From NCBI GenBank assembly GCA_023227835.1, contig JALOCI010000003.1, forward strand, positions 54,520-118,519: a DNA stretch of 64,000 bases. Reading direction: 5' to 3'. The translations under genes were made by a program, and so were the position numbers. The stretch is from Bacteroidales bacterium. Its GTDB lineage: Bacteria; Bacteroidota; Bacteroidia; Bacteroidales; UBA932. Positions 5,728 to 40,638 of this stretch are shown in pieces. The notes beneath the pieces are model-generated. The model made no database searches and was not told the DNA's origin. It worked only from the letters and a program-made list of their open reading frames with translations. How positions within the stretch are numbered: the stretch's first letter is position 1; each line of letters starts with the position of its first letter.

Positions 5728-7152
5728 ATGACATCCATTCAGAGATCCTTACATCTTTTCGGCGTTACTACAGAAGAATTGAAAATATTAACAGATACGG
5801 CTCTTTCGAAAGGTGGTGAGTACTCAGACCTTTTTTTCGAACACTCAACGGTTGATGAACTGACACTAAGGGATGGAGAAGTTAACGGGGCCGGTTCGCA
5901 TATAGATTATGGAATGGGGGTAAGAGTTATATCCGGAGATCAGACAGGATACGCCTATACCGAGATAACTACCATGAACGAGATGACAAATGCCGCTAAG
6001 GCTGCATCTATTATAGCTCTAGGAAACAAGAAAAGAATACCTGTCACCGATATAACACCTATGGATTTTAAAAATCACTACCCTATTTTAAAATCATGGG
6101 AAGACTCGGATGTCACATCAAGGGCTCCATTCATAAAAGCCCTGAACGATAAAATATTCTCTTTGGATCACAGAGTTAACAAAGTTATTGCGAAACTTAC
6201 CAACTCGACAACCAGCATACTTTTTTTCAACTCTCTGGGGACACTTTGTTCTGACGAAAGACCTATGGCAACACTGTCTGTCACTGTTATAATGCAAGAC
6301 GGATCAAGGGTAGAGAACGGAAGTTCTTCAAGAAGTTATAGGATGGGTTCAGAATTTCTGACAGAAAACCTCATTGACGAAATAGCGCAAGAGGCAGTTA
6401 ACAGGACAGCCATACTTTTTGATGCAGGAGTTCCGGAAGGGGGAGAGATGTCGGTAGTAATGGGAGCCGGCGGTTCGGGCATTCTTTTACATGAGGCGAT
6501 CGGACATGCTTTTGAGGCCGATTTCAACAGACAAAATGTTTCCATTTTTTCTGACAAATTAGGAAAAAAAATATGCTCTTCTGAAATTTCCGTTGTTGAT
6601 GACGGAACCGTTCAAGGGAACAGAGGAGCGGTTAATTTTGACGATGAGGGTGTAGCCGGACAGAAAACGTACATGGTTACCGACGGCTACCTTACTTCAT
6701 ACCTTCACGACAGGATAAGTGCCTCTTATTACAAAACGGCCTCTACAGGAAACGGTCGGAGAGAGTCATTCAGATATATGCCGCTTCCGAGAATGAGAGC
6801 TACTTATATGATTAATGGTAAAAGCAAGGAAGCTGATATCATATCGTCCGTAAAAAAGGGCATTTTCGTCGACAACTTTTCAAACGGGCAGGTTCAGATT
6901 GGCGCAGGGGACTTTACATTCTTTGTAAAATCGGGATACATGATTGAAAGCGGCAAATTAACAAAGCCGATAAAGGATATAAACATTATCGGCAACGGGC
7001 CTAAAGCTCTTGCCGATATAGTGGCTGTGGCAGACAACTCATATATTGACAATGGATCCTGGACATGCGGGAAAGAGCAGTATTGCCCAGTCTCTTGCGG
7101 GATGCCTTCCGTCCTTATCAACAAACTTACAGTAGGAGGATTACAACAATGA
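5728..7152 (+). CDS. tldD: metalloprotease TldD
   Basis: 474 aa with no signal peptide. HExxxH motif in GILLHEAIGHAFEADF. The length and C-terminal GxC region are typical of TldD. Followed by pmbA with an ATGA overlap. Confidence 0.9.
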   Translation: MTSIQRSLHLFGVTTEELKILTDTALSKGGEYSDLFFEHSTVDELTLRDGEVNGAGSHIDYGMGVRVISGDQTGYAYTEITTMNEMTNAAKAASIIALGNKKRIPVTDITPMDFKNHYPILKSWEDSDVTSRAPFIKALNDKIFSLDHRVNKVIAKLTNSTTSILFFNSLGTLCSDERPMATLSVTVIMQDGSRVENGSSSRSYRMGSEFLTENLIDEIAQEAVNRTAILFDAGVPEGGEMSVVMGAGGSGILLHEAIGHAFEADFNRQNVSIFSDKLGKKICSSEISVVDDGTVQGNRGAVNFDDEGVAGQKTYMVTDGYLTSYLHDRISASYYKTASTGNGRRESFRYMPLPRMRATYMINGKSKEADIISSVKKGIFVDNFSNGQVQIGAGDFTFFVKSGYMIESGKLTKPIKDINIIGNGPKALADIVAVADNSYIDNGSWTCGKEQYCPVSCGMPSVLINKLTVGGLQQ

Positions 7153-8489
7153 AACAAGAGAATGAGAGTGAAACAATCCATTTTGCCCTGAAAGCAGCTG
7201 AAAAACATGGCGCAGGTGCTGTCAGAATTACATACAACAAGACCAAACACAGCTCATATACATTCAGAAACGACAAACTGGACAGATTGCAGCAGGCAAC
7301 CGGATCTTCATTATTCCTACAACTATATGTTAATGGAAGATATGGCACTTTCTCCACAAACAGAATGGAGAGAACAGAACTTGAAAGGTTTATAGCTAAG
7401 AGCATTGAGACAACAAAATTACTTACCGAAGATAAACACAGATCCCTGCCGGATACATCTCTCTGTTATAAGGGAGGGGGAACTGATCTTAAGCAATGTG
7501 ACCCGGAGTTTTCCGAAATACCGTCTGAAAAAAAGATAGAAATTGCCAGAATGTGCAATGCCGAAATTCTTGGCAAAGACAAGAGATTACTTAATGTGAA
7601 CAGCGAATACGGGGATTATGAAGATCACACACTGATTGTTGATTCACAGGGATTTTCCGGGACAACAAACCAGACAAACTACACAGTCAGCACCGAATGT
7701 TCCGTTAAGGGAAAAGGCGATTCCAGACCGGAGGGATGGTGGTATGAGAGTTCTCTTTTCTTCAACGACCTAAAAACAGGCGGATGCGGGGAAAAAGCTC
7801 TTGAAAGGGCCATAAACAAGCTTGGGACCAGAAAAATCAAAAGCGGGAAGTATAATATGGTGGTTGAAAACACTATTTCCAGCAGACTGGTCTCTCCGAT
7901 TATCAATGCCCTCAACGGCGCAAATATCCAGCAAAATAACTCTTTTCTCAACGGTAAACTCGGAGAGAGGGTTTTCTCTCCTCTAATGGAAATATATGAT
8001 GAAGCCCACCTTCCCGGGGAATTCGGTTCCAGGTTATTCGATTCTGAGGGCATAGCGACTAAACCAGGCCCCATCATAGATCAGGGAGTAATCAGCACTT
8101 ACTTTATGAATTCATATTATTCGAAGAAAACAGGCATTCCTGTAACGGTAGAATCTCCATCCCTGCCTGTATGCTCAATTTCAGGACAAAGAGGTGTGTC
8201 AAACGAGAATAAGTTGGAACATATTCTGAGAAATACAGGAAAGGGTATCTTCGTAACCGGTTTTAACGGAGGTAACACAAATAGTTCCACAGGGGATTTT
8301 TCATTTGGGATAGAGGGCTTCTACTTTGAGGATGGCTCTATTTTATATCCTGTTTCAGAGATGAATGTAACAGGAAACATAATCTCCCTCTGGAATTCTG
8401 TTCGGGATATTGGAAATGACGCGAGAAAGGCAAGCAGGTGGCTAATACCAACACTATCATTTAATTCCGTAGATTTCAACGGATTTTAG
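7149..8489 (+). CDS. pmbA: metalloprotease PmbA (TldE)
   Basis: The ATG at 7149 overlaps the tldD TGA (ATGA), giving 446 aa starting MKQENESETIHFALKAAEKHGA. There is no HExxxH, as expected for the non-catalytic partner. The track's 7065 start would add 28 aa inside tldD. Confidence 0.85.
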   Translation: MKQENESETIHFALKAAEKHGAGAVRITYNKTKHSSYTFRNDKLDRLQQATGSSLFLQLYVNGRYGTFSTNRMERTELERFIAKSIETTKLLTEDKHRSLPDTSLCYKGGGTDLKQCDPEFSEIPSEKKIEIARMCNAEILGKDKRLLNVNSEYGDYEDHTLIVDSQGFSGTTNQTNYTVSTECSVKGKGDSRPEGWWYESSLFFNDLKTGGCGEKALERAINKLGTRKIKSGKYNMVVENTISSRLVSPIINALNGANIQQNNSFLNGKLGERVFSPLMEIYDEAHLPGEFGSRLFDSEGIATKPGPIIDQGVISTYFMNSYYSKKTGIPVTVESPSLPVCSISGQRGVSNENKLEHILRNTGKGIFVTGFNGGNTNSSTGDFSFGIEGFYFEDGSILYPVSEMNVTGNIISLWNSVRDIGNDARKASRWLIPTLSFNSVDFNGF

Positions 8490-26445: not shown

Positions 26446-26487
26446 TAATTGGCAATTTGTGTTATTTCTCATTTTCTGAAATTGACA

Positions 26488-27018
26488 ATGGAAGAATTTA
26501 TCGCAGGAATCAATAAGAGGGAAGAAAAATCTTGGGGTATCCTTTTTGATTTTTATTATGCTCCCTTATGTGCCTATGCGGAAAAATTCCTTCGCAGTCA
26601 CGCCCTTGCTGAAGATATAGTTCAAGAGACTCTTATAAAAATATGGACATCTTCCAGTTTATTTGACAATAAACGCCACCTCACATTATATCTGTACAAA
26701 GCCATATATAATAATTCTATCTGCTATCTGCGTTCTAACAAAGAATCAACAGAGATTAACAGTACTATTGAAAATTGGAGTGATACTGATTTTGCTGCAA
26801 CAGTCAAAGAAGAGTTGTTCCGCCGTTTGTATGAAGAAATCCAGAAGCTGCCGGAACAAAGACGCAGAATAATTTTATTAAGTATAGACGGCAAATCTGG
26901 AAAAGAGATTGCGGAATTACTTAAAATCAGCCCCAACACCGTTAAAGGACAGAAATCAAAAGCCTTGGAAGCTCTTAGACGTAATACTAAAAATACCCCT
27001 TTAATTTTTCTTCTCTAA
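26488..27018 (+). CDS. ECF-type RNA polymerase sigma-70 factor
   Basis: Region 2 (AEDIVQETLIKIW) and a region 4 HTH (GKSGKEIAELLKISPNTVKGQKSKALEALR). Start MEEFIAGINK at 26488. Followed by a FecR-type anti-sigma gene. Confidence 0.85.
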   Translation: MEEFIAGINKREEKSWGILFDFYYAPLCAYAEKFLRSHALAEDIVQETLIKIWTSSSLFDNKRHLTLYLYKAIYNNSICYLRSNKESTEINSTIENWSDTDFAATVKEELFRRLYEEIQKLPEQRRRIILLSIDGKSGKEIAELLKISPNTVKGQKSKALEALRRNTKNTPLIFLL

Positions 27019-27103
27019 AAAGAGAGTTTTTTTTCTCTTTTTTTTCATTTCGGATAATACTTTTATTCGCTTTTTTCATATTATCACTAAACACTACGAA
27101 AGA

Positions 27104-28201
27104 ATGTCAGAAGAAACTAGATTTTACAATGCTCTTCAATCAATTATTAATGATGAAGACCAAACTGTAAAACAATTGGAGGAGGTAAGGGAACTTTATC
27201 ATAGAGGAGATGCATCTGTTGAGTTAAAGCGATATCACTCTTATGATAAGGAAAAGGCCTATTTGGTGTTTCAGAAGCGGACACGCAAAAAGAGCAAAAA
27301 CAAGGTTATCCGCTTGTCGTGGTCTATAGCAGCAGCTGCTGCTATCCTGATTGGCATTATTATTCCTTTCATCTGGCAACAAGATAGGCCGGCTCCGTCT
27401 CCAATATCTCAGCAATCAGCTATCCCGGCCCTTTCTGATTCACTACCACGCATAAAATTGGCCAGCGGAGAAATTATTGAAATACCCGATACCTGCAACT
27501 CTATAAATGTACAAGGAGTTAAGGCAACAATAAATAACAGCACACTTCAACTCAGCGGTATTAGTGATAATTCCTCTGCTGTGCAAATGAATGAAATAAT
27601 AATCCCTCGGGGAAGACAATACAGAATAACTCTGGAAGATGGTACCGCCGTATTGATGAATTCCGAATCTTCTTTGCGGTTTCCGAACAGATTTACAAAT
27701 TCGAGAGAGATAGAATTAAAAGGTCAGGCATTTTTTGATGTAACAAAAGATGGTCGCCCGTTTCGCGTAACATGTCCGACAGGAACAGTAACTGTATTAG
27801 GTACCTCATTCGACATAAGGAGTTATGAGGGCGAATCCACTCTGGTTACACTTGTCAAAGGCAAAGTTAAGTTTGCAGACGCATCTGCAGAAGTCACTCT
27901 TAAGCCGGGTGAACAGGTATGCCAGTCAGAAGAGGGACTCAAAGTTTATGTTGTTGATACACATCGCTTCACAGCATGGAAAGATGGTTTAATATATTTT
28001 GATGACAACCTGGAAAGTGTTATGCGAAATATTGAGAGAATATATGACGTGAAAGTGATATATAGTAATGAAGGCTACAAACAAATCAGGTTTATCGGTG
28101 AGTGCTCCCGGTTCCAAACAATTGATGAATTCATGAAGTTGCTGAGCCTTACACAAGAATTTAACTATGAAATTAACGGGAATATTGTCAAAATCGAGTG
28201 A
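27104..28201 (+). CDS. FecR-family anti-sigma factor / transmembrane sensor
   Basis: Single TM (LSWSIAAAAAILIGIIIPFIW), a periplasmic FecR domain (GRQYRITLEDGTAVLMNSESSLRF...) and a C-terminal DUF4974-like region. Confidence 0.85.
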   Translation: MSEETRFYNALQSIINDEDQTVKQLEEVRELYHRGDASVELKRYHSYDKEKAYLVFQKRTRKKSKNKVIRLSWSIAAAAAILIGIIIPFIWQQDRPAPSPISQQSAIPALSDSLPRIKLASGEIIEIPDTCNSINVQGVKATINNSTLQLSGISDNSSAVQMNEIIIPRGRQYRITLEDGTAVLMNSESSLRFPNRFTNSREIELKGQAFFDVTKDGRPFRVTCPTGTVTVLGTSFDIRSYEGESTLVTLVKGKVKFADASAEVTLKPGEQVCQSEEGLKVYVVDTHRFTAWKDGLIYFDDNLESVMRNIERIYDVKVIYSNEGYKQIRFIGECSRFQTIDEFMKLLSLTQEFNYEINGNIVKIE

Positions 28202-28279
28202 CCAAAGGAATGCGCGCTTCTGAAATCATTTCATTGACAAATTTCTGTTCCTATTTTATTACACCTAACAAAAAACAAG

Positions 28280-31200
28280 ATGAAAATAATTGACTTCATT
28301 CATCTAAGGCCATTATTGTGTCGTGCCAGAACAAAATGTTTTGTCATAACGTTTTGCCTTACTTGCTTCTTCGCATTACCTTCTCTTGCTCAAAGCCAGA
28401 GATATTCGGGAATTTTTAAAAATGAAAATGTCCGTGTCGTACTAGAATCTGTACAAAAAAGTACCGGAGTTAAATTTGTATATAACGCGGCTTTGATTAA
28501 CAACAGCACTATTGTAACCATCACTGCAGAAAATGAGACTGTTGACAACTTTTTACGACGTGTCCTTAATCCACTGGGACTAGAGATTATATGGCATGAT
28601 GGTGTTGCTGTAATCAGACGCAAGAATGTTAACAATAGCAAAAAAATCAACATATCAGGATACGTGACTGATACTGAAAAAGAGCCCCTGGCGGGAGTTA
28701 ATGTTGTTGTAGCAGGAACTGCTATCGGTGTTATGACAGACTCTCAGGGTAAATATGTTATATCGGCCAATCCGGATTGTGTCATGAAATTCAGCTTCAT
28801 TGGTATGGAGTCACAATTCGTTCCTTGTAACAATCGTGAAATAATAGATGTTGTAATGAAGGAAGATATGATGGTTATGCAAGATGCTGTAGTTACAGGT
28901 TATCAGACGATAAACCGCAATCACTTGACCTCTGCCATCACATCTATAAAAATGGATGATATTAAAACCCCCGGAGTAACTACCCTTGACCAGATGCTTG
29001 AAGGACGTATTCCCGGTATGATATTTATGAAAAATTCAGGTCAGGTCGGTGCTGCTCCAAAATTACGTATACGAGGTACTTCAACTATTCTGGGAAACCG
29101 CGAACCACTTTGGGTTCTAGACGGAATTGTCTTAGCAGATCCGGTAAATGTAGATCCGCAGCAGATTAACGACCCTGACTTTGTAAATTTGTTGGGAAAT
29201 GCCATTTCCGGTCTAAACCCAGATGACATTGAGCAAATCGATGTACTGAAAGATGCCTCAGCAACTGCACTTTATGGAGCAAAAGCAGGTAATGGTGTTA
29301 TTGTAATCTCCACAAAAAAAGGTAAATCAGGGAGACCTTCAATCTCATATTCCGGAACAACTACATACACACGTCGTCCTCAATACTCCGACCGTTCTAT
29401 CTATATGATGAACTCTGCAGAGAGGATGGATGTATCAAAAGAACTTGTGGACCGTAAGATGTACTACAACAATATATCTCAATGGTCTGGTTATGAGCAA
29501 GCCCTTCAAGATTACTACAGAGGTAAAATCACCTATGCTGAATTCAAGAGCCAGAGTGACTACTATGCATCAATAAATACCAATTGGCTTGGAATGTTAT
29601 GCAGAAATGCAATCTCACACAACCATACATTGAGCCTTTCGGGAGGAACCGCCAACATCAAGTATTATGCATCACTAGGTTACTCTAATGAGAATGGAGT
29701 TATAAAAAACGAAAAGAGTAACAGGTACTCAACAACACTTAATGTAACAGCAAATTACGACAAGTTCAATGTTCAGTTCTCCTTATTGGGAAACTATTCT
29801 GAAAGAGTCTATATTCCTGCAGATTTGGGTATTATGAACTATGCATACAATATGAGTAGGACGATGCCTGCATATAATGAAGATGGGAGTCCTTTTTACT
29901 ATCCCAAAGCGAATACAACAGGAATGATTATTTATAATTATAATATTATGAATGAGATTAATAATTGTGAGGATTCATCCACAGGAAACGGATTGAACAT
30001 GCGTACCCAGATTCGCTATAACGTACTACCATCTTTGAATATTGACGGGTTGCTCTCATATGGTATCACAAACAATACAAGAGAAACATATTATACCAAA
30101 AACTCATATTATGTATTCAACTTGAGAGGAGACCAAACGGAGCGTTGGGATCAATGTCCGGTAGGCGGGGAATTTAGCCGTAATGAGAGCACTAATCATA
30201 GTTATACAGCCAGATTACAGGCAAATTACTCTAAATTGTTCGGAACACATCAGAGTCACCTGGTATCCGCTTCAGCTGGTATTGAGGTAAAATCTAACGA
30301 GAATAAAGCATTTGATCTTACACGCAGAGGTTATTTCAATGAATTTGGTGGGTATTTCGATGCTGTCCCTACAAAATACAGCGGCTATTACAGTCAATGG
30401 ATGTCGACCAAGAAAGCGCTCGGCATCAATACACGCCAACTCAACAATGAATTGTCATGGTATGCCACAGCCGGATACGGGTGGAAAGACAGATATATAT
30501 TCAATGTGCATATTAGAGGTGAGCAATCTAATCTGTTCGGTTCCAGGGCAAATAGTGAGTTTATGCCGATATGGGCTGTATCAGGGCGTTGGAATATGAA
30601 AAAAGATCTGTTGAAAGAGGTTTCATGGATTGATGATATAGCCATGCGTGCATCTTGGGGATGGCAGGGTAATATGCTGCCGGGACAAACTTCTCGCATG
30701 ATCATGCAGATGTCAACTCTTAACAATCCAATATTTAATTCAGGATATGCAACTATATCAAAATATCCAAACCCGGATTTGAGGTGGGAACGAACTTCCT
30801 CAAGCAACCTTTCTGTTGATTTTGCTTTATTTCAAAATAAAGTAAGAGGTTCAGTCTCATATTTTTATAAGCATACCCGCGATGCCTTTCTTACAAAAAC
30901 AATATCTGAAATCAACGGTATAAATCAATATGTAGTCAATGGTGGTACTCTTGAAAACCAGGGTTTTGAATTGGCTCTTAGTTTCACTCCGATAGATAAC
31001 GCAAATCTTGGAGGCTCTTCCCGTGGGTTTGTGTGGCGAGTTGATCCCCAAATAGGTCAGGTATTGAATAAAGTATTGAATCGTGCTATAAATAATAAGA
31101 CCCACATTTTGCGTGATGAGGTGACATACAATGATTTCCTGAGCGGAAATATTGAGTTGGCCGGTAAACCAATAAGCACCTTCTACTCCTATCGATACAA

Positions 31201-31897
31201 AGGACTAAGTCCTGTAGATGGCTCTCCTGTTTTTTATGGGTCGGAGAATGAATTATCTGCAGAATATATGTTGAAATACTCACAGATGAAACGTGAGGAT
31301 GTATATATGGCTGTTATGGAGGAATCTGGAACACGTGAGCCGTATATCCAGGGTGGTATATCAAACTACTTCGGCTACCGTAATTTTGGTTTGTCATTTA
31401 ATCTGACCTACTCTTTGGGCAACAAAATAAGACTTATGAAAATTTGTTCAGGATATGCCTCAAATATAATTTATCCTCAGCAGAACTTACGTAAGGAGTT
31501 CACAAAACGTTGGAGAAAACCGGGAGATGAGGCATATACTGATATTCCGGGATTGAGTGCAAGCAATACAGTAAACTCTCCATGGTGGAATGTTTATCCT
31601 GCAACTCAATATTCTTTCGGAGGGACAGTGTACGATATGTACGACAATTCAAACCTGCGTGTAGTAAGTGGAGACTATCTGAAACTGCAATCCCTGTCAT
31701 TCCGTTACAATATAGCAGAGAACATTGCGAAGAAAATGGGTGTGCAGTCTGCATATATAAGCCTTTCTGGCACAAATTTATTCACGATCTGTAATAAAAG
31801 ACTGAAAGGCCAGGATCCGACACAATCCGGTTCTACACCTAACATCAACCTCTCTGAACGACCAACATTTTCACTAAATATCAATTTCACATTATAA
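28280..31897 (+). CDS. SusC/RagA-family TonB-dependent transducer (STN + CarboxypepD_reg + plug + barrel)
   Basis: 1205 aa with a signal peptide, an N-terminal STN signalling domain (VRVVLESVQKSTGVKFVYNA...) and a carboxypeptidase-regulatory-like domain (ISGYVTDTEKEPLAGVNVVV). The TonB-box/plug region reads DAVVTGYQT and IEQIDVLKDASATALYGAKAGNGVIVISTKKG. Confidence 0.9.
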   Translation: MKIIDFIHLRPLLCRARTKCFVITFCLTCFFALPSLAQSQRYSGIFKNENVRVVLESVQKSTGVKFVYNAALINNSTIVTITAENETVDNFLRRVLNPLGLEIIWHDGVAVIRRKNVNNSKKINISGYVTDTEKEPLAGVNVVVAGTAIGVMTDSQGKYVISANPDCVMKFSFIGMESQFVPCNNREIIDVVMKEDMMVMQDAVVTGYQTINRNHLTSAITSIKMDDIKTPGVTTLDQMLEGRIPGMIFMKNSGQVGAAPKLRIRGTSTILGNREPLWVLDGIVLADPVNVDPQQINDPDFVNLLGNAISGLNPDDIEQIDVLKDASATALYGAKAGNGVIVISTKKGKSGRPSISYSGTTTYTRRPQYSDRSIYMMNSAERMDVSKELVDRKMYYNNISQWSGYEQALQDYYRGKITYAEFKSQSDYYASINTNWLGMLCRNAISHNHTLSLSGGTANIKYYASLGYSNENGVIKNEKSNRYSTTLNVTANYDKFNVQFSLLGNYSERVYIPADLGIMNYAYNMSRTMPAYNEDGSPFYYPKANTTGMIIYNYNIMNEINNCEDSSTGNGLNMRTQIRYNVLPSLNIDGLLSYGITNNTRETYYTKNSYYVFNLRGDQTERWDQCPVGGEFSRNESTNHSYTARLQANYSKLFGTHQSHLVSASAGIEVKSNENKAFDLTRRGYFNEFGGYFDAVPTKYSGYYSQWMSTKKALGINTRQLNNELSWYATAGYGWKDRYIFNVHIRGEQSNLFGSRANSEFMPIWAVSGRWNMKKDLLKEVSWIDDIAMRASWGWQGNMLPGQTSRMIMQMSTLNNPIFNSGYATISKYPNPDLRWERTSSSNLSVDFALFQNKVRGSVSYFYKHTRDAFLTKTISEINGINQYVVNGGTLENQGFELALSFTPIDNANLGGSSRGFVWRVDPQIGQVLNKVLNRAINNKTHILRDEVTYNDFLSGNIELAGKPISTFYSYRYKGLSPVDGSPVFYGSENELSAEYMLKYSQMKREDVYMAVMEESGTREPYIQGGISNYFGYRNFGLSFNLTYSLGNKIRLMKICSGYASNIIYPQQNLRKEFTKRWRKPGDEAYTDIPGLSASNTVNSPWWNVYPATQYSFGGTVYDMYDNSNLRVVSGDYLKLQSLSFRYNIAENIAKKMGVQSAYISLSGTNLFTICNKRLKGQDPTQSGSTPNINLSERPTFSLNINFTL

Positions 31898-31910
31898 AGG
31901 TTTGTCTGAT

Positions 31911-33506
31911 ATGAAGAAATTTACATTATATATTCTTGTGTCAATCTTATTGACATCATGCAGCAATTTTCTGGAAGAATACTCGACGGATTTAAGGTAT
32001 TGCGAAACAGCCCAAGATCTCGAATATCTTATGATTGGCGAAGCTTTTCTCAATACTCCATCACTATCTGTATATAATCAAGCCACTATGAGTAAAGTTA
32101 ATCTCGAAGGATTGGTTAGTAGCTACAACTATCCGTGGCTTCATGTAATGGATGATGATGCCGAGGTTTTTGTTTGGGACAATGTTGCCGTTGACCAGGA
32201 AACCCCGCTCTATAAATTAAGTGGATTACATAACTGGTCTAACTCTCCATTTATGGATGTTTTTTCGAAAAAGTGGGAAGATACCCAATGGGAAAAAATG
32301 TATAAAAAAATAGGAGCCCTCAACTCAATTATCTTTCAGGCAACACAACTATCAGATAAAAAGGGGATAGATAAAGTATTGTTATCACACATAACCGGCG
32401 AAGCATATTTCCTGCGTGCCTTTTATTATTTCTACCTGAACAATATATATGGACTGCCCTACTCTATGGCAACGGCTTCATCAGATTTTGGGGTTCCATT
32501 AAAAACAACCGAGGTAGTTGAGGTAAAATATTTTTCACGTGCAACTAATGAAGAGGTGTACAACCAAATTATCTCTGACCTGGAACAGGCTGCCACTAAC
32601 TTGGAGGGATATACACCTGATAAAAAGATTCGTGTAGGGATTGGTGCCGTCAGGGCTTTTCAAAGTCGTGTCTACCTGTATATGGAAAGATATGATGAAG
32701 CCATCAAGGCAGCAGAAGAGATCGACAAAATGAGCTATGCCCTTCTAGACCTTAATGCTGTAGCACCCAAATCCAGTTCAACGTTCTACTCTTCAACTGA
32801 GACAATATTTACTGTCAGTGGTAATGAAATCCCGGTCGTTTTCATGAACGATTCGCTCTCTGCATGGAATGGCAATGATAACCGCGTATCTGCCTTCAAG
32901 GCTTCCAACAACTTGATGGACAAATATCAGCCAGGTGATCTGCGAATGACTAAATTCTTTTATGCTTCAGCTAAAAACAGGGCACCTATCCCCGGGAAAT
33001 ATACAACTTGGAAAACCTACAATGATCCTGAGGTTGTATCATCAGTCTTTGCAATCAGATATCCAGAGGTTATCTTAAACCGCGCTGAGGCTTTAGCTAT
33101 GCTTGGAAGAACCGAGGATGCACGCCAGGCTCTAAATAAGTTACGCATAAAACGCTTTGCTTCTGGAGCAATGAGTGATGTACCTTCAACAGAAAGTGAA
33201 CTGGTTTCATTTATTCGTGATGAAAGACGTCGTGAACTCTGCTTTGAAGGACACCGTTGGTTTGATCTGCGTCGTTATGCAGTAAACAGCAAGTATCCAC
33301 TCGACAAAAACTTTGTTATTCGCCACCCATCATACTCATACGATGAAAATTCAAAAATGAATTACCTGACAGGGTATTTTGAATTGGAATCTTATGATAA
33401 GGATAAAGCTGCATGGGTAGTCCCTGTTCCCGACTATGTAATATCATATAACAGGGGTTCTATTAAAAATTTGGAACGGAAAACACGTAACCTGATTAAA
33501 TATTAA
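31911..33506 (+). CDS. SusD/RagB-family outer-membrane lipoprotein
   Basis: Lipobox LLTSC. The C-terminal signature ERRRELCFEGHRWFDLRR is typical of the SusD family. Lies immediately downstream of susC. Confidence 0.9.
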   Translation: MKKFTLYILVSILLTSCSNFLEEYSTDLRYCETAQDLEYLMIGEAFLNTPSLSVYNQATMSKVNLEGLVSSYNYPWLHVMDDDAEVFVWDNVAVDQETPLYKLSGLHNWSNSPFMDVFSKKWEDTQWEKMYKKIGALNSIIFQATQLSDKKGIDKVLLSHITGEAYFLRAFYYFYLNNIYGLPYSMATASSDFGVPLKTTEVVEVKYFSRATNEEVYNQIISDLEQAATNLEGYTPDKKIRVGIGAVRAFQSRVYLYMERYDEAIKAAEEIDKMSYALLDLNAVAPKSSSTFYSSTETIFTVSGNEIPVVFMNDSLSAWNGNDNRVSAFKASNNLMDKYQPGDLRMTKFFYASAKNRAPIPGKYTTWKTYNDPEVVSSVFAIRYPEVILNRAEALAMLGRTEDARQALNKLRIKRFASGAMSDVPSTESELVSFIRDERRRELCFEGHRWFDLRRYAVNSKYPLDKNFVIRHPSYSYDENSKMNYLTGYFELESYDKDKAAWVVPVPDYVISYNRGSIKNLERKTRNLIKY

Positions 33507-33509
33507 GAT

Positions 33510-34439
33510 ATGAAAAGATTAAGTATAATAACTCTGGCTCTTGTGATTTTTTGTACATCATGCCAAAAAGAAGAGGTAACTAAGTTTCCGGATTATGATA
33601 AGGATTGGTTCGTTTTAGTGGACAATCCTTCTGATCCGGCCGACCATGCAGCATATCAATTTTATAAGGAATTCGGAATTCCCGTATTCTATAATGACAC
33701 AATCGGTGTTCAGGAAAGAGTTGACGTTTGGGGAAATAAGTATATGCATTATGAGCTGCTTTCGTTGAATTATTCTATGGGTGGAATGGCTACTTCAACC
33801 AGCTCCCCTACTATCAGTTCCCTGACATACTGCTCAAAACAGAGTGTGCCGAGTGCTCTCAGCTATCTTAAAGAGAATATCATGCCTCTTATCCCGAAGG
33901 CAATTCACATACACAGCTTTTTTCTTGTAGAGAGTATGAGTAGCCAGTCATTTGGCAACGCTGCTTTCAAAGGTATGAATACATTGGTTGTTGCCTCAGC
34001 ATCAAAACTATCAACCATGACCGATGATCAAAAGAAAAAATTCAATGGTGCTGTATTACGTGCTGCCCTGTCAGATTATATCATCAATCAAGGACGTTTT
34101 GACACTGAACTCGAAAAATTTTATAAAGTATCTACTGTTTTGTGTCCGACAAAAAATATTTACGGGCTATACACCTATTATTTAAGTTCTTCATACATCA
34201 CAGGTCTGCCGGCAGGTGTTCCGATAAATATCAATACCGTAGGATTCCTTTCGACCGATCCAGTCAGCACCTATTACACTCCAACCAGCACTTGGATGGA
34301 TGTGAATATGTATTTGGAAGCCATTCTCTCCGGGCCTCAAGAAGAATTCATAGCCAAGTACGGAACATTTGCCAACATTATGACCAAATATGGAATTATA
34401 AAGAACATCCTTCAAGAAACAGGTATAAATCTTAAATAA
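33510..34439 (+). CDS. hypothetical lipoprotein (SusE/F-position gene)
   Basis: Lipobox IFCTSC. Starts 3 nt after the susD stop. No family recognised by eye. Confidence 0.65.
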   Translation: MKRLSIITLALVIFCTSCQKEEVTKFPDYDKDWFVLVDNPSDPADHAAYQFYKEFGIPVFYNDTIGVQERVDVWGNKYMHYELLSLNYSMGGMATSTSSPTISSLTYCSKQSVPSALSYLKENIMPLIPKAIHIHSFFLVESMSSQSFGNAAFKGMNTLVVASASKLSTMTDDQKKKFNGAVLRAALSDYIINQGRFDTELEKFYKVSTVLCPTKNIYGLYTYYLSSSYITGLPAGVPININTVGFLSTDPVSTYYTPTSTWMDVNMYLEAILSGPQEEFIAKYGTFANIMTKYGIIKNILQETGINLK

Positions 34440-34454
34440 AAACATAAATATAAA

Positions 34455-35819
34455 ATGAAAAAAATTTTTTTAATAGCACTTTGTGTTATTATGGGACCCG
34501 TAACCATTGCCTCTGCCCAGAACTCCATACTGAAGGGCTCTTTCAAACGAATTGCCTATCAGAACGTACTATGTGATGATATTCATGTATACCTTATGGA
34601 TAGGGGCCAAATGAAACCTGTATTGGAAAATTTAATGAAGAAGGGTGCGTATACCTTCCAATTTGGAATCGGCCCCGATCAAAATATGTTCAATAAGATT
34701 TGCTATGTAGGAACTAATGGAGAATATTTTCCAGTTTATATTTCTCCGGACAATACAGTAGAAATTAATGTCGAAAACAGCAAAATAAATTTTGCAGGCA
34801 AACTCAACAAGGAAAACCAGGTAATTGCCAACTATTATAAAATCATCAGCCCATTGCACGAAATGATGTACACTAACAAAGCCAGGGCAGTGAGTGAAGA
34901 TGAAATTGCCAAGGTAATAAACGAGATAACTCCTCAGGCATTGAATTTTGTGAAACAAATCAAAACCGGCAATGTCAATTTTGACTCTTACATGAGATTT
35001 ATGTTGCCTTACAGTCTGCAGAATGATGTACTGCAGTTATATGCTCAAGGACGTTCATTCCCGAATGGGGCTTATCCTGAATATCTCAAAAAACTTTTTT
35101 CTACGGATAATTTTAATTCCATGAAAATTCTGGATCTTCCCTTTGGCTACGACCTGATGTTGATGTACGGCTTTGCCAAAGAGTGTATTGGCAATAAACG
35201 AATGGGGACGGGTGTAACTTTTGCAATCGAGAGCATTTCATGCAAAGAGTTGAAAGGTGAAGTGGCACTATGGGGTATGGAGAATAATTGTATAAATGAA
35301 GATCTGAATGTTTTCTCAGAAAAATACAAAGAATTCCTTGTCACAAAGGAGCAAAAAGAGCGTTTTGAAAAGTTTTATAGAATATTGTCTCTTAGAAAGG
35401 TTGGCGGTAACTGGGTGGATTTTTCATATCCGGACATTGACAACGTACAACGAAAGCTTTCTGACTATAAAGGCAAAGTTGTTGTAATAGACGTTTGGGC
35501 TTCATGGTGTGCTCCATGCCGCGCAGAATTTCCAAGCCTGAGAAAACTTGAAGAGGAGTTACAAGGCAAAGATGTAGTATTTATCGGTCTTTCACTCGAT
35601 ACAAAACACAAAGATTGGGAAGATATGGTGAAGAAAGAGAATTTACTCGGAGTCCAATTATATACCAATCGTGAGGGTGTAATCGTCAACGATTACAAAG
35701 TTGAAGCGGTACCTCAGTTCATTGTATTCTCAAAAGAGGGCAAGACAGTTGCCTTTGATGCACCAAGACCATCCAGCCCTAAGCTTAAGGAGATTATAGA
35801 AACTGAATTAAAGAAATAG
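34455..35819 (+). CDS. exported TlpA/redoxin-family thiol-disulfide oxidoreductase with long N-terminal extension
   Basis: Signal peptide MKKIFLIALCVIMGPVTIASAQN. The C-terminal redoxin domain reads GKVVVIDVWASWCAPCRAEFPSL, with the CxxC codons at 35508..35519. Confidence 0.85.
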   Translation: MKKIFLIALCVIMGPVTIASAQNSILKGSFKRIAYQNVLCDDIHVYLMDRGQMKPVLENLMKKGAYTFQFGIGPDQNMFNKICYVGTNGEYFPVYISPDNTVEINVENSKINFAGKLNKENQVIANYYKIISPLHEMMYTNKARAVSEDEIAKVINEITPQALNFVKQIKTGNVNFDSYMRFMLPYSLQNDVLQLYAQGRSFPNGAYPEYLKKLFSTDNFNSMKILDLPFGYDLMLMYGFAKECIGNKRMGTGVTFAIESISCKELKGEVALWGMENNCINEDLNVFSEKYKEFLVTKEQKERFEKFYRILSLRKVGGNWVDFSYPDIDNVQRKLSDYKGKVVVIDVWASWCAPCRAEFPSLRKLEEELQGKDVVFIGLSLDTKHKDWEDMVKKENLLGVQLYTNREGVIVNDYKVEAVPQFIVFSKEGKTVAFDAPRPSSPKLKEIIETELKK

Positions 35820-35821
35820 AT

Positions 35822-36904
35822 ATGAAACGCACAATCGCATTAATATTATTTATGGGTTCCATTTTGTTCAACTACAGCCTGATGGCTCAGGAAAAAGGAA
35901 CCAAATTTGAACATATAAGTGTAAAAGAGGCTATTGCCAAGGCATCAGCCAGTAAGAAGATGATTTTTATTGACTGTTATACAAAGTGGTGTGGTCCTTG
36001 TGCTAAAATGGCGACGCAGATCTTCCCGCTGGAGGAGTGTGCCAACTATTTTAATCCCAAATTTGTTTGTCTGAAAGTTGATATGGAGGTGGGTGAAGGA
36101 ATAGAACTCATGAAGAAGTTCGATGTAAAGGCATTCCCTACATTCCTTATTTTGGATTCTAAGGGGAGAGAATTAAACCGTATTGTAGGCGGAGCGGAAA
36201 ATGCATCTTCATTCATAAAACGTGTAGAAGAGGCTTTGAATCCTGAAAATTCACTGGTTGGATTAAAAAAGGCTTATGAGACAGACAAAACGATGGCAAA
36301 TGGCATCAAATATATAAAGGTCATGATGGAGTACGGAAAAGATACCGGTCCTGTTTTGGACAGCGTATATAATAATGCCGGTGACTTTGAACGCTACAAC
36401 ACAGAATTTATGCAACTTTTCTTCAGTGAACTGGATTACAGAAGCGAACGTTTCGACAGGCTAATGCTTGATAAGCCTTACCTAAACCGCGCTTTGGGCA
36501 CAGAAAATGTCAATTGGATGATTTTCAATTTGTACCGAAAAGGGATGTATCTCGTTGCTGCAGAACGTCCGCATAACTATACTGTAGAGGATGTACGTAA
36601 AGCCGCTTTGCTCACATCATTGTTGGATATGCCTATGGATGAAGCAGAAAAACATATTAGTATTATTGCCCTGTTTGTTATTCAGAAAGACTATGATGGG
36701 ATGATTAGATATTATGATCATTATGTTTGGAATTTGCCTAATGGGGCTTATAAGGGAATTCTTAACGGATTTTTGAGTAGTAAAGTTTCTAAGTTTTCTC
36801 CTGAGCAACGTAAGGCAGTAAAGGCTTACTTTGAGAAAGCAGCTAAAAACTACGGATATGAAGCGAGTCAATACTCCAATGCGCTAAGCAGTATGAAAGA
36901 ATAG
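35822..36904 (+). CDS. exported thioredoxin-fold protein (WCGPC) with C-terminal helical domain
   Basis: Signal peptide ending LMAQE. IFIDCYTKWCGPCAKM carries the CGPC codons at 35990..36001. AFPTFLILD provides the cis-Pro region. Confidence 0.8.
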   Translation: MKRTIALILFMGSILFNYSLMAQEKGTKFEHISVKEAIAKASASKKMIFIDCYTKWCGPCAKMATQIFPLEECANYFNPKFVCLKVDMEVGEGIELMKKFDVKAFPTFLILDSKGRELNRIVGGAENASSFIKRVEEALNPENSLVGLKKAYETDKTMANGIKYIKVMMEYGKDTGPVLDSVYNNAGDFERYNTEFMQLFFSELDYRSERFDRLMLDKPYLNRALGTENVNWMIFNLYRKGMYLVAAERPHNYTVEDVRKAALLTSLLDMPMDEAEKHISIIALFVIQKDYDGMIRYYDHYVWNLPNGAYKGILNGFLSSKVSKFSPEQRKAVKAYFEKAAKNYGYEASQYSNALSSMKE

Positions 36905-37021
36905 TCTAGTAAGTAAAATACTCTTAGCTGAATTCCCGGAGCGGTTTTGGAGTTTGAATTTCCGAGGCCGCTCCTTTGCTAAATATAGATTAAAATATAA
37001 CTCATATTTTATTACAAACAG

Positions 37022-38698
37022 ATGAAAAAAATTTTATTGTTAACTACCTTTTTGCTTGTATTCGCCTCTATATCCGCTCAGGACAAGATGCTGGACCTTT
37101 TAAAAGAAGAACTTAAAAGCCAGATGGCTACTCTTCAAAAGGGGGAGTATCCTCCTTACTATATGAATTACAGGGTAATTGATAATTACACCCGTGTTAT
37201 TAAATCTTCCATGGGAGGAATTAATACAGTTGAAGAGGATAAACAGGTTATATTTGTACCTCAGGTTAGAATAGGATCTCCCGATTTCGACAATTTCCAT
37301 GAAATAGAAAGTGGGGCTTCTGCCATTAGCTATGGTGGGCGATCTTCTGTCTTGTTACCAATTGATATAGAAAACAGTCAGGATGCGTTTAAGGAGATTA
37401 TGCGAGAGGAGGTCAACAACCGCTATAAAGTAGCAAAAATAAATTACGAAAGTGCAATTGCAAAGAAAGGTGTTCAGAGGGATAATGAAGATACCTCTCC
37501 GGATTTTACAGCTGCTGAAGCGGAGAAATATTATGAACCGCCTCTTAAGAATAATCAAATCGCATTTGATATAGATCTATGGAAAAAGAGACTGAATAAA
37601 TACTCAGCTTTTCTCGCAGAAAACAAAGATATAATTTATGCCAACGCCATTCTATCCTTTGAAATATGGAGAAAATACTTTGTATCTACTGAAGGGGCAG
37701 AAATAGTTGAAAACAGGGTATACATTCTTTTAACTATAAGTGGATCCTCCATGGCTGAAGACGGAATGGAACTGCCATTGAATATAAGCTATATGGCATT
37801 TACTCTGGATGAACTTCCTTCCGAAGCAATAATCAAGAAAGATATAAAAGCAATGTCTGCGAAACTTTCCGAGCTGAAGGTTGCCCCACTTGTTCAGCCG
37901 TTTTCAGGGCCGGCTTTATTATCCGGTTCCGCTAGCGGAGTTTTCTTTCATGAAATATTTGGGCATAGGGTCGAGGGACAAAAGATGAAGAGTGACTCAG
38001 ACGGCCAGACATTTAAAAAAATGGTCGGGGATTATGTACTCCCTAAAAACCTTAGTGTCTATATGGATCCTACAATGCAAAGATATCACGGTCATCCGCT
38101 TAACGGATACTATATCTTTGATGAACAAGGTGTAAGAGGAGAGCGTGTAGAGGTTGTAAAAGACGGAAAGTTGGAAAACTTTTTGATGACCAGAACCGGA
38201 ATTACAGGATTCAACAAATCGAACGGTCATGCCAGAGCTGAATTTGAGTATGATCCCACATCCCGCCAATCAAACTTGATAGTAGAAACGAACGAATATA
38301 AAAGTGAAGCTGAACTGAGAAAGCTGTTAATTAACGAAGCAAAAAAACAAGGTAAGGATTATGGGTATTATATTAAATCTGTTACCGGTGGTTTCACCCA
38401 GATAGCAAGATCTGTTACGAATTCATTCAACGTGACTCCACTTGAAGTATATAAGATTTATGTTGATGGTAGAAAAGACGAACTGGTAAGGGGTGTAGAT
38501 ATGATTGGCACTCCCCTCTCAATGTTCTCTAATATTGAATATGCCGGCGGAGATTTCGAGGTATTTACCGGAATTTGTGGTGCCACATCAGGAAATGTTC
38601 CTGTTACGGCTGTTTCACCAACAATTCTTGTAAATAAGGTAGAACTGCAAAAAAAAGCAAAACCGACTGTAACACCGGCAATATTGCAACGCCCCTGA
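37022..38698 (+). CDS. exported TldD-like metallopeptidase (TldD/PmbA family, catalytic-type subunit)
   Basis: Signal peptide MKKILLLTTFLLVFASISAQD. HExxxH is retained in GVFFHEIFGHRVEG (37949..37966). The C-terminal FTGICGATSGNVPV resembles the TldD C-terminal region (WTCGKEQYCPVSCG in the cytoplasmic copy). 558 aa versus 474 aa for the cytoplasmic TldD. Confidence 0.8.
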   Translation: MKKILLLTTFLLVFASISAQDKMLDLLKEELKSQMATLQKGEYPPYYMNYRVIDNYTRVIKSSMGGINTVEEDKQVIFVPQVRIGSPDFDNFHEIESGASAISYGGRSSVLLPIDIENSQDAFKEIMREEVNNRYKVAKINYESAIAKKGVQRDNEDTSPDFTAAEAEKYYEPPLKNNQIAFDIDLWKKRLNKYSAFLAENKDIIYANAILSFEIWRKYFVSTEGAEIVENRVYILLTISGSSMAEDGMELPLNISYMAFTLDELPSEAIIKKDIKAMSAKLSELKVAPLVQPFSGPALLSGSASGVFFHEIFGHRVEGQKMKSDSDGQTFKKMVGDYVLPKNLSVYMDPTMQRYHGHPLNGYYIFDEQGVRGERVEVVKDGKLENFLMTRTGITGFNKSNGHARAEFEYDPTSRQSNLIVETNEYKSEAELRKLLINEAKKQGKDYGYYIKSVTGGFTQIARSVTNSFNVTPLEVYKIYVDGRKDELVRGVDMIGTPLSMFSNIEYAGGDFEVFTGICGATSGNVPVTAVSPTILVNKVELQKKAKPTVTPAILQRP

Positions 38699-38726
38699 TA
38701 AGAATCGATTATTTAATATTTAAGAA

Positions 38727-40430
38727 ATGAAAAAAGCACATATCATAAGAACAATTTGCGCGCTCCTACTAATTCAGATTGTATCAATTTTTCCAATGAT
38801 GGGGCAAAAAAGCGATGAAATTCTATTTAAAGCCATGCAGGATGAGATGTCCCGAACAAAAAACGAACTCCGACTTCCAGGTGCTCCATCTACTCTATTT
38901 ATTGGTTACACCTTGGCAGAAAACAGGTTTTTATCTGTAAGTAGCACACTCGGATCTGTTACTTATATAAAAGAGAATCCTATCGAAAGAGTCAATACTG
39001 TAAATCTCTATGTTGGAGATAATCAGTTTTCAAGCAATTACTCTTATACTGGAAAAGGTGTAAATTCCAATTTTTTTACATGTGCGGAAGATAGTTATAA
39101 CCAAATAAGGAGTAATTTTTGGAGAACATCTGACTTAGCCTATAAATTCGCTGTTGAAGCATATAAATCAAAGCAAACAAATTTTAAAACAGCAAATCTG
39201 TCTGATGAGGAAAGAGCCTTGCCTGATATGTTAGAATTAAAAAAAATAGAGGTCTCTACTCCCGAAATACCCATTTACAATCCAAGTAAAAAGGCCTATG
39301 AAGATCTTTCTAAGTCCTTATCAAAAATTTTCATAAAACACCCGGATATTTTCTCTTCTTCTGTTGATATTAACGGCATTCAGACTATTTATTATTATTT
39401 AACGACAGAAGGCACCAGGATTAAAGAGCCCGTTGAATATGTAGCTATAACAATCAGTGGCAAGATTCGAAACGCCAAAGGACAGGTTTTGGAAGACAGA
39501 GATGTCATTTATGCAAAAGCCTTTGATAAGCTTCCTTCAAAAGAGGCTCTCTCATCTGTTGTGGAAAAATTTGCATCTAATCTTGATACGCTTCGTAATG
39601 CCGGTAATGTAGATGAGTACTATCTTGGTCCTGTCCTTTTTGAAGACGCTGCCTCTGCTGAGATATTTGCGTGGAATCTCATATCTCCTTCAGGTATAAT
39701 GGCATACAGAAAACCGATACAGGTAATGTCCTCTATATACAGACCAGAGAACGTAATCGGAGCAATAAACACAAAACCATTGGAAGATAGAATAAATAAA
39801 AAAGTTATTGATAGCAGGCTTAATGTAACGAACTTTTCAGGTTTATTGGAATACAACGGAGAACCTTTAATTGGATCCTATAATTATGATGCCCAGGGTA
39901 TAGCTCCTGTCAAAGAGCTGAAAATAATAGAGAATGGCATTTTAAAATCTTTATTGAGCACCCGATTCCCAACAAAGAAAATCAAAGAGTCAAGTGGTAG
40001 TCTGAGGTTTGGCGCAACGCCAAGGGCAATTCCTGTTGGAGTTGCTCCGGGGGTTCTTGTGATATCAGCTCCAAACGGTGCAGCATCTTCAGAACTAAAG
40101 TCACAACTTATCGCTGCAGCAATTGAAGAGGGTTTGGATTATGCATATATTGTAAGAAATATAAATGGAGATTCAAATCAGTTTATATACAAGGTATCAG
40201 TAAAAGATGGAGCAGAAACGCTTCTCATAGGGGCGCAAATTTCCCCTGTTCAATTCTCTAAATTGAAAAGAGTCCTTGGAGTAAATAAAGAGCAAACCGT
40301 TTATAACTATTTATATAATGGAGCTATTCCTACATCAATTATTGCCCCCAGATCTCTCCTTCTAGAAGATGTTGAGATAGTGGATACACAGCTTAATGTT
40401 CAGGAAGAATCCCCTTTAATCCGAAAATAA
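38727..40430 (+). CDS. exported PmbA/TldE-like protein (TldD/PmbA family, no HExxxH)
   Basis: Signal peptide MKKAHIIRTICALLLIQIVSIFPMMGQ. Its length and layout parallel the upstream gene. At the equivalent position it reads SAEIFAWNLISPSG, so no metal motif. Assignment rests on weak similarity seen by eye plus the pairing. Confidence 0.65.
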   Translation: MKKAHIIRTICALLLIQIVSIFPMMGQKSDEILFKAMQDEMSRTKNELRLPGAPSTLFIGYTLAENRFLSVSSTLGSVTYIKENPIERVNTVNLYVGDNQFSSNYSYTGKGVNSNFFTCAEDSYNQIRSNFWRTSDLAYKFAVEAYKSKQTNFKTANLSDEERALPDMLELKKIEVSTPEIPIYNPSKKAYEDLSKSLSKIFIKHPDIFSSSVDINGIQTIYYYLTTEGTRIKEPVEYVAITISGKIRNAKGQVLEDRDVIYAKAFDKLPSKEALSSVVEKFASNLDTLRNAGNVDEYYLGPVLFEDAASAEIFAWNLISPSGIMAYRKPIQVMSSIYRPENVIGAINTKPLEDRINKKVIDSRLNVTNFSGLLEYNGEPLIGSYNYDAQGIAPVKELKIIENGILKSLLSTRFPTKKIKESSGSLRFGATPRAIPVGVAPGVLVISAPNGAASSELKSQLIAAAIEEGLDYAYIVRNINGDSNQFIYKVSVKDGAETLLIGAQISPVQFSKLKRVLGVNKEQTVYNYLYNGAIPTSIIAPRSLLLEDVEIVDTQLNVQEESPLIRK

Positions 40431-40470
40431 GGTAAATTATTAAACCAACAATATTTTTTACATTCTATAA

Positions 40471-40504
40471 TTTGGGTTGAGTTCAATTAAGAACTCAACC
40501 CAAA
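40471..40504. terminator. strong intrinsic terminator hairpin closing the SusC..PmbA-like gene string
   Basis: Perfect 14-bp stem TTTGGGTTGAGTTC / GAACTCAACCCAAA with a 6-nt loop AATTAA, followed by TTTTTA. Confidence 0.7.
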
Positions 40505-40638
40505 TTTTTATTCTTAAAACATTTCATAAGGCTGTAAAAGAACAATTATAATAGGGCAATGAGATGATAGAAATGTGAAGGTTTTCAACAGGTTGAGTCC
40601 TTGTCGGCGGTCAGGCTGGTTCAATATTCCATTCACTA

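Follow-up and report, generated by a model that had tools for sequence, protein, structure and literature searches.

The closest described relative of the genes reported here is TldD/TldE (PmbA) of Escherichia coli (MEROPS family M103; PDB 5NJ5 series), a cytoplasmic heterodimer that threads unfolded peptides and carries an HExxxH-plus-Cys metal site in TldD only, with Cys454 of TldD as the third metal ligand (PMC5810440). We analyzed a stretch of 64,000 nucleotides from a Bacteroidales genome (GenBank assembly GCA_023227835.1, contig JALOCI010000003.1, positions 54,520 to 118,519; hereafter the window). It encodes a canonical tldD-pmbA pair and, further downstream, a tandem pair of enlarged genes of the same family, which we call A and B. 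To our knowledge, TldD/TldE has been described solely from the cytoplasm, as an enzyme whose general role is puzzling. We found no published study of exported TldD/E in the literature, the 2022 review by Vobruba et al. being outside that search.

We consider it probable, at roughly 70%, that A and B form a two-subunit extracytoplasmic metallopeptidase of family M103 that digests unfolded peptides; we infer its export and cleavage, dimer formation, proteolytic activity and substrate. A sequence-only reading of the window had suggested an extracytoplasmic TldD/E-like heterodimer, and this suggestion is supported computationally by family membership, export signals, gene order, natural fusions and a structure model of a fusion; we encountered none of the outcomes that it had named as refuting.

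Results

An enlarged pair of TldD/PmbA-family genes

The sequence-only reading had described a canonical tldD-pmbA pair of 474 and 446 amino acids (aa) joined by an ATGA overlap, with HExxxH in TldD only, and a second tandem pair of 558 and 567 aa about 29 kb away. We checked the open reading frames (ORFs) and the HEAIGH motif, and both descriptions held (Table 1). The two pairs are separated by 28.5 kb, and A and B lie on the same strand with a gap of 28 nt. The earlier estimate that A and B are approximately 85 to 120 aa longer than their cytoplasmic counterparts was also accurate; the excess is 84 aa for A and 121 aa for B, or 65 and 95 aa after subtraction of the predicted signal peptides. 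The pair is not the only one beyond the canonical pair: the source genome (3.29 Mb, 137 contigs) contains a third pair, also enlarged, on contig C5 (L007:8494-11900), with products of 558 and 568 aa whose identity to A and B is 78% and 64%, respectively. We aligned the six family members of this genome.

Pfam domain PF19289 (TldD/PmbA C-terminal domain) matched A at 104.1 bits and B at 35.3 bits, with a cut-off of 22. PF01523 and PF19290, the N-terminal and central domains, matched neither A nor B at E <= 0.01. The canonical pair of the window, unlike A and B, matched all three domains, and precomputed PF19290 matches are present in a few fused relatives. In a search of PDB sequences, A matched E. 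coli TldD (5nj5_A, E = 1.7e-10), while nothing was found with B alone or with a B-family profile. The membership of B rests on Pfam, on profile-profile comparison and on fold comparison. The hhalign comparison of the A and B families gave an end-to-end alignment (E = 4.7e-70, 532 columns, 20% identity), placing the 567-aa protein inside the TldD/PmbA family. In addition, the AlphaFold2 model of the window B (predicted local distance difference test score (pLDDT) 90.0, predicted template modelling score (pTM) 0.86) matched the same 16 TldD/TldE chains in Foldseek as the fusion model described below and no others (E 1e-19 to 1e-23), indicating that B is a member of the TldD/PmbA superfamily. Close relatives of A number more than 7,000 in databases, in which the labels for the A-B family are generic ("TldD/PmbA family protein" or "metallopeptidase TldD-related protein", NCBI).

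Table 1. Coordinates of A, B, their sites and the flanking and comparator features in the window
Feature	Position	Strand	Remarks
Gene A, predicted exported enlarged TldD-like catalytic subunit	37022..38698	+	558-aa ORF
Predicted Sec/signal peptidase I signal peptide of A, residues 1-19, MKKILLLTTFLLVFASISA / QDK	37022..37078	+	Hydrophobic core, Ala-Gln junction; prediction
HEIFGH metal-binding/catalytic motif of A (H310, E311, H315)	37949..37966	+	Aligns with HEAVGH (H262/E263/H267) of E. coli TldD
Codon of A Cys519 (GICGATSG), counterpart of E. coli TldD Cys454	38576..38578	+	From alignments; C519-G520 invariant
Gene B, predicted exported enlarged partner subunit without metal site	38727..40430	+	567-aa ORF
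Predicted Sec/signal peptidase I signal peptide of B, residues 1-26, ...SIFPMMG / QKS	38727..38804	+	Hydrophobic core, Gly-Gln junction; prediction
Degenerate former active-site helix of B, AEIFAWNLISPSGIMAY, residues 311-327	39657..39707	+	Aligned to GVFFHEIFGH of A
Canonical tldD	5728..7152	+	474 aa, HEAIGH, without signal; NCBIfam TldD 353 bits; comparator only
Canonical pmbA	7149..8489	+	446 aa, without signal; NCBIfam PmbA 160 bits; comparator only
Extracytoplasmic function (ECF) sigma factor, FecR-like anti-sigma factor, SusC-like, SusD-like and 309-aa proteins (Sus-like locus)	26449..34439	+	Pfam
Two exported thioredoxin-fold proteins: 454 aa, TlpA/AhpC-TSA-like, WCAPC; 360 aa, WCGPC	34455..36904	+	Pfam
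15-bp hairpin between thioredoxin-like gene and A	36938..36974	+	-31.2 kcal/mol, z = -4.15; weak T-tract
Intrinsic terminator closing the A-B unit	40469..40506	+	16-pair stem then T-run, z = -7.0

Predicted signal peptides of A and B

We judged signal peptides by heuristics, i.e., Kyte-Doolittle hydropathy in 10-aa windows and a small residue followed by Gln ([AGS]/Gln) at the aligned cleavage site. The N-termini of A and B have a basic start and a hydrophobic core and end in the junctions ISA/QD and MMG/QK, respectively. The most hydrophobic 10-aa window scored 2.9 in A and 3.0 in B, compared with 0.8 and 0.5 in the canonical pair. At the aligned cleavage site, [AGS]-Gln was present in 69/76 A relatives and 54/59 B relatives; Gln at position +1 is known to mark substrates of signal peptidase I in Bacteroidetes (PMC5837995, PMC10653852). 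The earlier statement that both members carry signal peptides is in agreement with these predictions.

The twin-arginine motif (RRxF[LIVMA]) was found in none of the 76 A and none of the 59 B relatives, and a lipobox-like Cys occurred in none of the A relatives and in a single B relative (1 of 135 in total). No C-terminal sorting domain of the type IX secretion system was found in A or B, in which PF19289 was the sole Pfam domain. That A and B are exported, with the soluble periplasm as the likeliest destination, is a well-supported prediction.

Metal site of A and its loss in B

The motif of A stands in the context FHEIFGHRVEG, and the corresponding stretch of B reads AEIFAWNLISPSGIMAY; i.e., HExxxH is kept only in the first member, as had been noticed earlier. 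Compared with A, the two His and the Glu are replaced in B (H to A at A315, E to W at W316 and H to Y at Y327), and seven residues are inserted. The Cys that serves as the third ligand is also gone in B in the alignment of the six family members of the genome. H310, E311, H315, E318 and C519 were invariant across 40 members of the A family.

A tandem A'-B-A-B array was observed in L074 (2519-4225, 4285-5913, 5941-7620, 7638-9290), a locus of a Rikenellaceae-labelled metagenome-assembled genome (MAG). In its first, A-type gene (L074:2519-4225), HExxxH is replaced by QEVVTP and the Cys is lost (YRMTE). The gene represents a further independent loss of the metal site within the catalytic clade.

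Gene order, natural fusions and structure models

We collected 77 related loci (designated by L numbers) by scanning one genome per species. Complete pairs numbered 53; in these, B came after A in the same orientation, and the median distance between the two was 29 nt. B was less conserved than A in 99.9% of comparisons, with a mean identity of 0.42 vs 0.61. In 11/77 loci, A and B were fused in a single ORF of 1,065-1,350 aa; one such fusion at a contig start was cut to 893 aa. The fusions were found in genomes labelled as rumen Bacteroidales, Alistipes, Bacteroidaceae, Prevotella and Rikenellaceae. Their B half begins at approximately B residue 30 and has no internal signal peptide, indicating that the signal segment of B is dispensable once the two proteins are fused. 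Searching with one fusion gave 507 or more cluster representatives that were fused. Clustering of a library at 50% identity left 794 representatives that matched A at E <= 1e-30, and approximately half of the best 150 were of double length. Recurrent fusion is classical evidence for two proteins acting as one unit.

We then considered structure models. The AlphaFold2 model of the fusion in L063 (5971-9432; 1,153 aa), built from an alignment of 65 fused proteins, had a mean pLDDT of 90.9 and a pTM of 0.88. A pTM of 0.88 across two halves of 550 residues indicates that the program was confident of the relative placement of the halves. In Foldseek against the PDB, the fusion model matched only 16 TldD and TldE/PmbA chains (E 1e-21 to 1e-27), with target-normalised template modelling (TM) scores of 0.69-0.76. 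Over the fusion model and the window B model, 518-566 columns were aligned at TM 0.68-0.76, and the next match had E > 1e-3. The fixed gene order, the recurrent natural fusion and the confident single-body model of the fusion together suggest that A and B act together.

An unusually long fusion was encountered in an Alistipes-labelled genome (L059:5764-9816). At 1,350 aa, it is approximately 200 aa longer than the other fusions, with extra sequence ahead of the A part and between the halves, and it is followed by an ORF of 1,103 aa.

Origin of the inactive subunit

The sequence-only reading held that the enlarged pair mirrors the catalytic/non-catalytic asymmetry of the cytoplasmic pair. This holds for the phenotype, but it does not extend to descent. 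In hhalign, the comparison of A with B reported above stood against E = 6.9e-17 for A and TldD, 7.1e-13 for A and TldE, 5.9e-9 for B and TldE, and 1.2e-8 for B and TldD. We constructed maximum likelihood trees (LG+C20+F+G4, posterior mean site frequency model) from A, B, fusion halves, canonical TldD and TldE, and TldD and PmbA of a type in which TldD bears a twin-arginine (Tat) signal. In a quick tree of 61 rows, A and the fusion N-halves were sister to B and the fusion C-halves, on a long branch with a Shimodaira-Hasegawa-like approximate likelihood ratio test support of 100. In a careful tree of 48 rows, to which a gammaproteobacterial canonical pair was added, the clade of A and B had a support of 100/100. 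An approximately unbiased test rejected a single clade of the catalytic subunits (difference in log-likelihood 113, p = 8.6e-5). Long-branch attraction would pull the fast-evolving B towards TldE, which is the opposite of what was observed.

Insertions and deletions told a similar story. Seven indel blocks (49 columns) were common to A and B and absent from TldD and TldE. A single block of 3 columns was shared by A and TldD, supporting the alternative topology, and B and TldE shared none. The pair is not derived from the split between TldD and TldE.

On these trees and alignments, B is a sister paralogue of A and not an orthologue of TldE, and the active/inactive asymmetry therefore evolved twice. 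With this topology, the metal site was lost at least twice, whatever the root. The fusion halves fell in at least two separate places of both subtrees, with L051 nested among split pairs and apart from L063, L077 and L083, indicating that fusion arose at least twice.

Genomic neighborhood

A Sus-like locus and two thioredoxin-fold genes precede A in the window (Table 1). The link of the Sus-like locus to A-B is uncertain, and the two thioredoxin-fold proteins are possible functional partners of A-B. The hairpin downstream of the thioredoxin-like gene is probably a terminator or attenuator, its weak T-tract leaving room for read-through; its position ahead of A suggests that A-B probably has its own promoter.

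Across the related loci, we tallied neighboring genes by Pfam as raw counts. The first upstream gene (72 loci) encoded a nitroreductase in 9, an S46 dipeptidyl-peptidase in 7, a DUF4953 Met-zincin in 6, a thioredoxin-fold protein in 6 and an M20 peptidase in 3. The second upstream gene (70 loci) encoded a thioredoxin in 5, an M3 peptidase in 4 and an S9 peptidase in 4, and the first downstream gene (67 loci) encoded a TonB-dependent receptor in 8. Genes for precursor peptides, for the modification of ribosomally made, post-translationally modified peptides (RiPPs) and for bacteriocin export were absent from the 209 neighbors scanned. The recurrent company of A-B is that of envelope peptide degradation and uptake.

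The third pair of the genome, on contig C5, has surroundings of its own. Its upstream row (L007:384-7775) comprises a protein with a Cleaved_Adhesin domain, M20 and S51 peptidases, a DcuC-type carrier, an exported M14 carboxypeptidase and an enolase-superfamily (dipeptide-epimerase-like) gene, and looks like a peptide-catabolism neighborhood. It is kept in L010 and L069, and partly in L009 and L028.

In the Sus-like locus of the window, the 309-aa protein (33510-34439) has no Pfam match and sits between SusD and the thioredoxin-fold genes. Its homologues keep their place after SusD in L008, L030, L050 and L071; it seems to be a fixed, unnamed component of such Sus-like loci. In one of these, from a Marinifilaceae-labelled MAG (L050:4371-11443), a tandem A-B-A-B array lies directly 3' of the SusC-like gene, the SusD-like gene and the gene for the 309-aa homologue.

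Discussion

Proposed mechanism and rival explanations

We propose that A and B would each be made with a cleavable Sec signal peptide and cross the inner membrane unfolded. Signal peptidase I would trim both proteins to an N-terminal Gln, and the two would then fold and pair in the periplasm, forming a hollow pseudo-symmetric shell as E. coli TldD/E does. The metal site would be present in A only, formed by H310, H315 and C519 with E311 as the catalytic base, and B would be a degenerate copy that completes the shell. Unfolded oligopeptides would be threaded into the chamber and chopped, most likely as a contribution to the catabolism of peptides and proteins in the envelope. As to its history, an enlarged exported ancestor would have duplicated, and one copy would have lost the metal site a second, independent time. 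For the role of the enzyme, we ranked general periplasmic oligopeptide degradation first and a thioredoxin-coupled route for disulfide-rich peptides, supported by a minority of loci, second.

The second of these roles corresponds to a more specific form of the best explanation, in which A-B is the proteolytic end of the Sus-like locus upstream; we regard it as unlikely. Disulfide-rich peptides or small proteins would enter via SusC/SusD, be reduced by the CxxC proteins and then be threaded into A/B. All genes from 26449 to 40430 lie on one strand, and the order of SusD, the 309-aa protein, the TlpA-like protein, the thioredoxin-like protein, A and B is kept in L008 and L030. SusC, SusD and 309-aa homologues also occur upstream of A-B in L050 and L071. 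Thioredoxin-fold genes are found directly or nearly directly upstream of A in the distant loci L036, L039, L043, L048, L014 and L061 (6/72 first and 5/70 second upstream neighbors), and a TonB-dependent receptor follows B in 8/67 loci. Such a route would also suit an enzyme related to TldD/E, which accepts unfolded peptides only (PMC5810440). However, between the thioredoxin gene and A lies a strong hairpin (36938..36974), approximately 60/77 loci have no thioredoxin-fold neighbor, and neither has the paralogous pair on contig C5. TlpA-like genes are, moreover, very numerous in Bacteroidales, and some chance adjacency is expected. The full scheme, in which the A/B shell is the last step of a reductase-coupled uptake (import by SusC/SusD, unfolding by CxxC reduction and shredding in the TldD-like chamber), is a longer shot still. 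If true, it would constitute a "peptide utilisation locus" for cystine-stabilised substrates, e.g., defensin-like or knottin-like peptides.

Alternatively, A-B may be a maturation or quality-control protease of the envelope, which trims a specific exported peptide (e.g., the leader of a bacteriocin or of a signalling peptide) or clears misfolded periplasmic proteins, with no part in nutrition. The E. coli enzyme does remove the leader of microcin B17 and degrade CcdA fragments (PMC5810440, PMC10885120), and the two to three pairs per genome could reflect different substrates. Nevertheless, the scan of 209 neighbors contained no gene for precursor peptides, RiPP modification or bacteriocin export, and the recurrent neighbors are digestive peptidases and TonB-dependent receptors; we consider this role quite improbable. 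Finally, an N-terminal helix in the models leads into a linker of low confidence and a homodimer of Sulfolobus TldD is reported to be active (cited in PMC5810440), but uncleaved signal anchors tethering the proteins to the inner membrane and facing the periplasm, or A acting alone as a homodimer with B in a non-protease role, are highly improbable, since junctions of a small residue and Gln for signal peptidase I are kept in approximately 90% of relatives (PMC5837995), the B signal is simply dropped in fusions, and fusion, fixed order and co-variation speak against an independent role of B.

Several points weigh against the two-subunit extracytoplasmic peptidase that we favor. A differs from E. 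coli TldD at two residues that tether the clamp (D272 to Q320 and K456 to A521). The pTM was obtained for a homologous fusion and would bear on the split pair of the window by extension, i.e., indirectly. Pairwise identities in A are correlated with those in B (r = 0.97), but any two genes inherited together should behave in this way. In the trees, canonical sequences were few (6 + 6, plus the Tat types) and mostly from one phylum. Lastly, the neighborhoods vary, with a nitroreductase in 9 loci, TatD in 5 and other genes elsewhere, and it is a minority of loci that supports the catabolic role.

Distribution and significance

A-type genes were present in 26/401 sampled genomes and in 15/180 genera of the phylum. 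By record title, the carriers were Bacteroidales, Rikenellaceae, Muribaculaceae, Odoribacter, Butyricimonas, Marinifilaceae, Alistipes and Prevotella. Outside the phylum, one Gammaproteobacteria MAG and one Acidobacteriaceae MAG each contained adjacent A and B. Two or three pairs per genome were common; Butyricimonas synergistica DSM 23225 has three pairs and no canonical pair.

A large branch of TldD/TldE appears to be extracytoplasmic in common Bacteroidales of gut, rumen and sediment, with sporadic members in other phyla. If confirmed, it would be an abundant new component in the envelope peptide-degradation toolkit of protein-fermenting anaerobes. The family is also a clean natural experiment in enzyme evolution, in which the pairing of an active with a dead subunit arose twice independently in one fold, the subunits were welded at least twice and an A-type subunit of one lineage lost its metal site as well. 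With the natural fusions, single chains are at hand for structural and biochemical studies.

Comparison with known systems

Within the same phylum, pairs of a Tat-signal TldD and a signal-less PmbA resemble A-B in being of an exported type, in carrying HExxxH in the catalytic subunit only and in being encoded by adjacent genes. They differ in that a twin-arginine signal (MKRRDFL...) is confined to TldD, implying that the complex is exported after folding, whereas A and B each have a predicted Sec signal. The Tat-type pairs also have the canonical architecture and, unlike A-B, fall in the trees with TldD and TldE, respectively. We found no published account of such pairs in the literature.

Two observations concern these Tat-type proteins themselves. 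In a genome of the same order, an orthologue 64% identical to the canonical TldD of the window (L093:1146-2657) starts with the twin-arginine signal MKRRDFLRAGGLAVVGATAF. We considered whether the canonical TldD of the window has a Tat signal hidden by a wrong start and rejected this; only 110 nt separate it from a divergent upstream gene, indicating that the window copy is truly signal-less. Even among orthologues, TldD seems to alternate between a cytoplasmic location and export by Tat. In addition, an unequal 3:2 array was noted in L085 (G017:C90:10000-20500), where five consecutive genes of the TldD/PmbA family share one strand and encode three Tat-signal TldD-like proteins (544 aa each, HESVGH) and two signal-less PmbA-like proteins (438 and 444 aa).

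The single-chain fusions (approximately 1,065-1,350 aa; rumen and gut Bacteroidales, Prevotella, Alistipes and Dysgonomonadaceae) are closer to the split pair. In both trees, their N half groups with A and their C half with B, and they share with A the signal peptide, HEIFGH and the Cys; they differ from A-B in being a single polypeptide.

Compared with cytoplasmic E. coli TldD/E, A and B both carry predicted Sec signal peptides, are 65-95 aa larger, have in common the seven insertion blocks and are matched by neither PF01523 nor PF19290. B is a sister of A and not an orthologue of TldE, the clamp-tethering D272 and K456 are replaced in A, and the subunits of the A-B family are often fused in one chain. 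Meanwhile, the fold is the same (Foldseek TM 0.70-0.76, target-normalised, with no other family matched), HExxxH-plus-Cys is present in one subunit only, and the inactive paralogue is encoded alongside the active one. The mechanism, in which peptides are threaded into a hollow shell and chopped, is probably the same as well.

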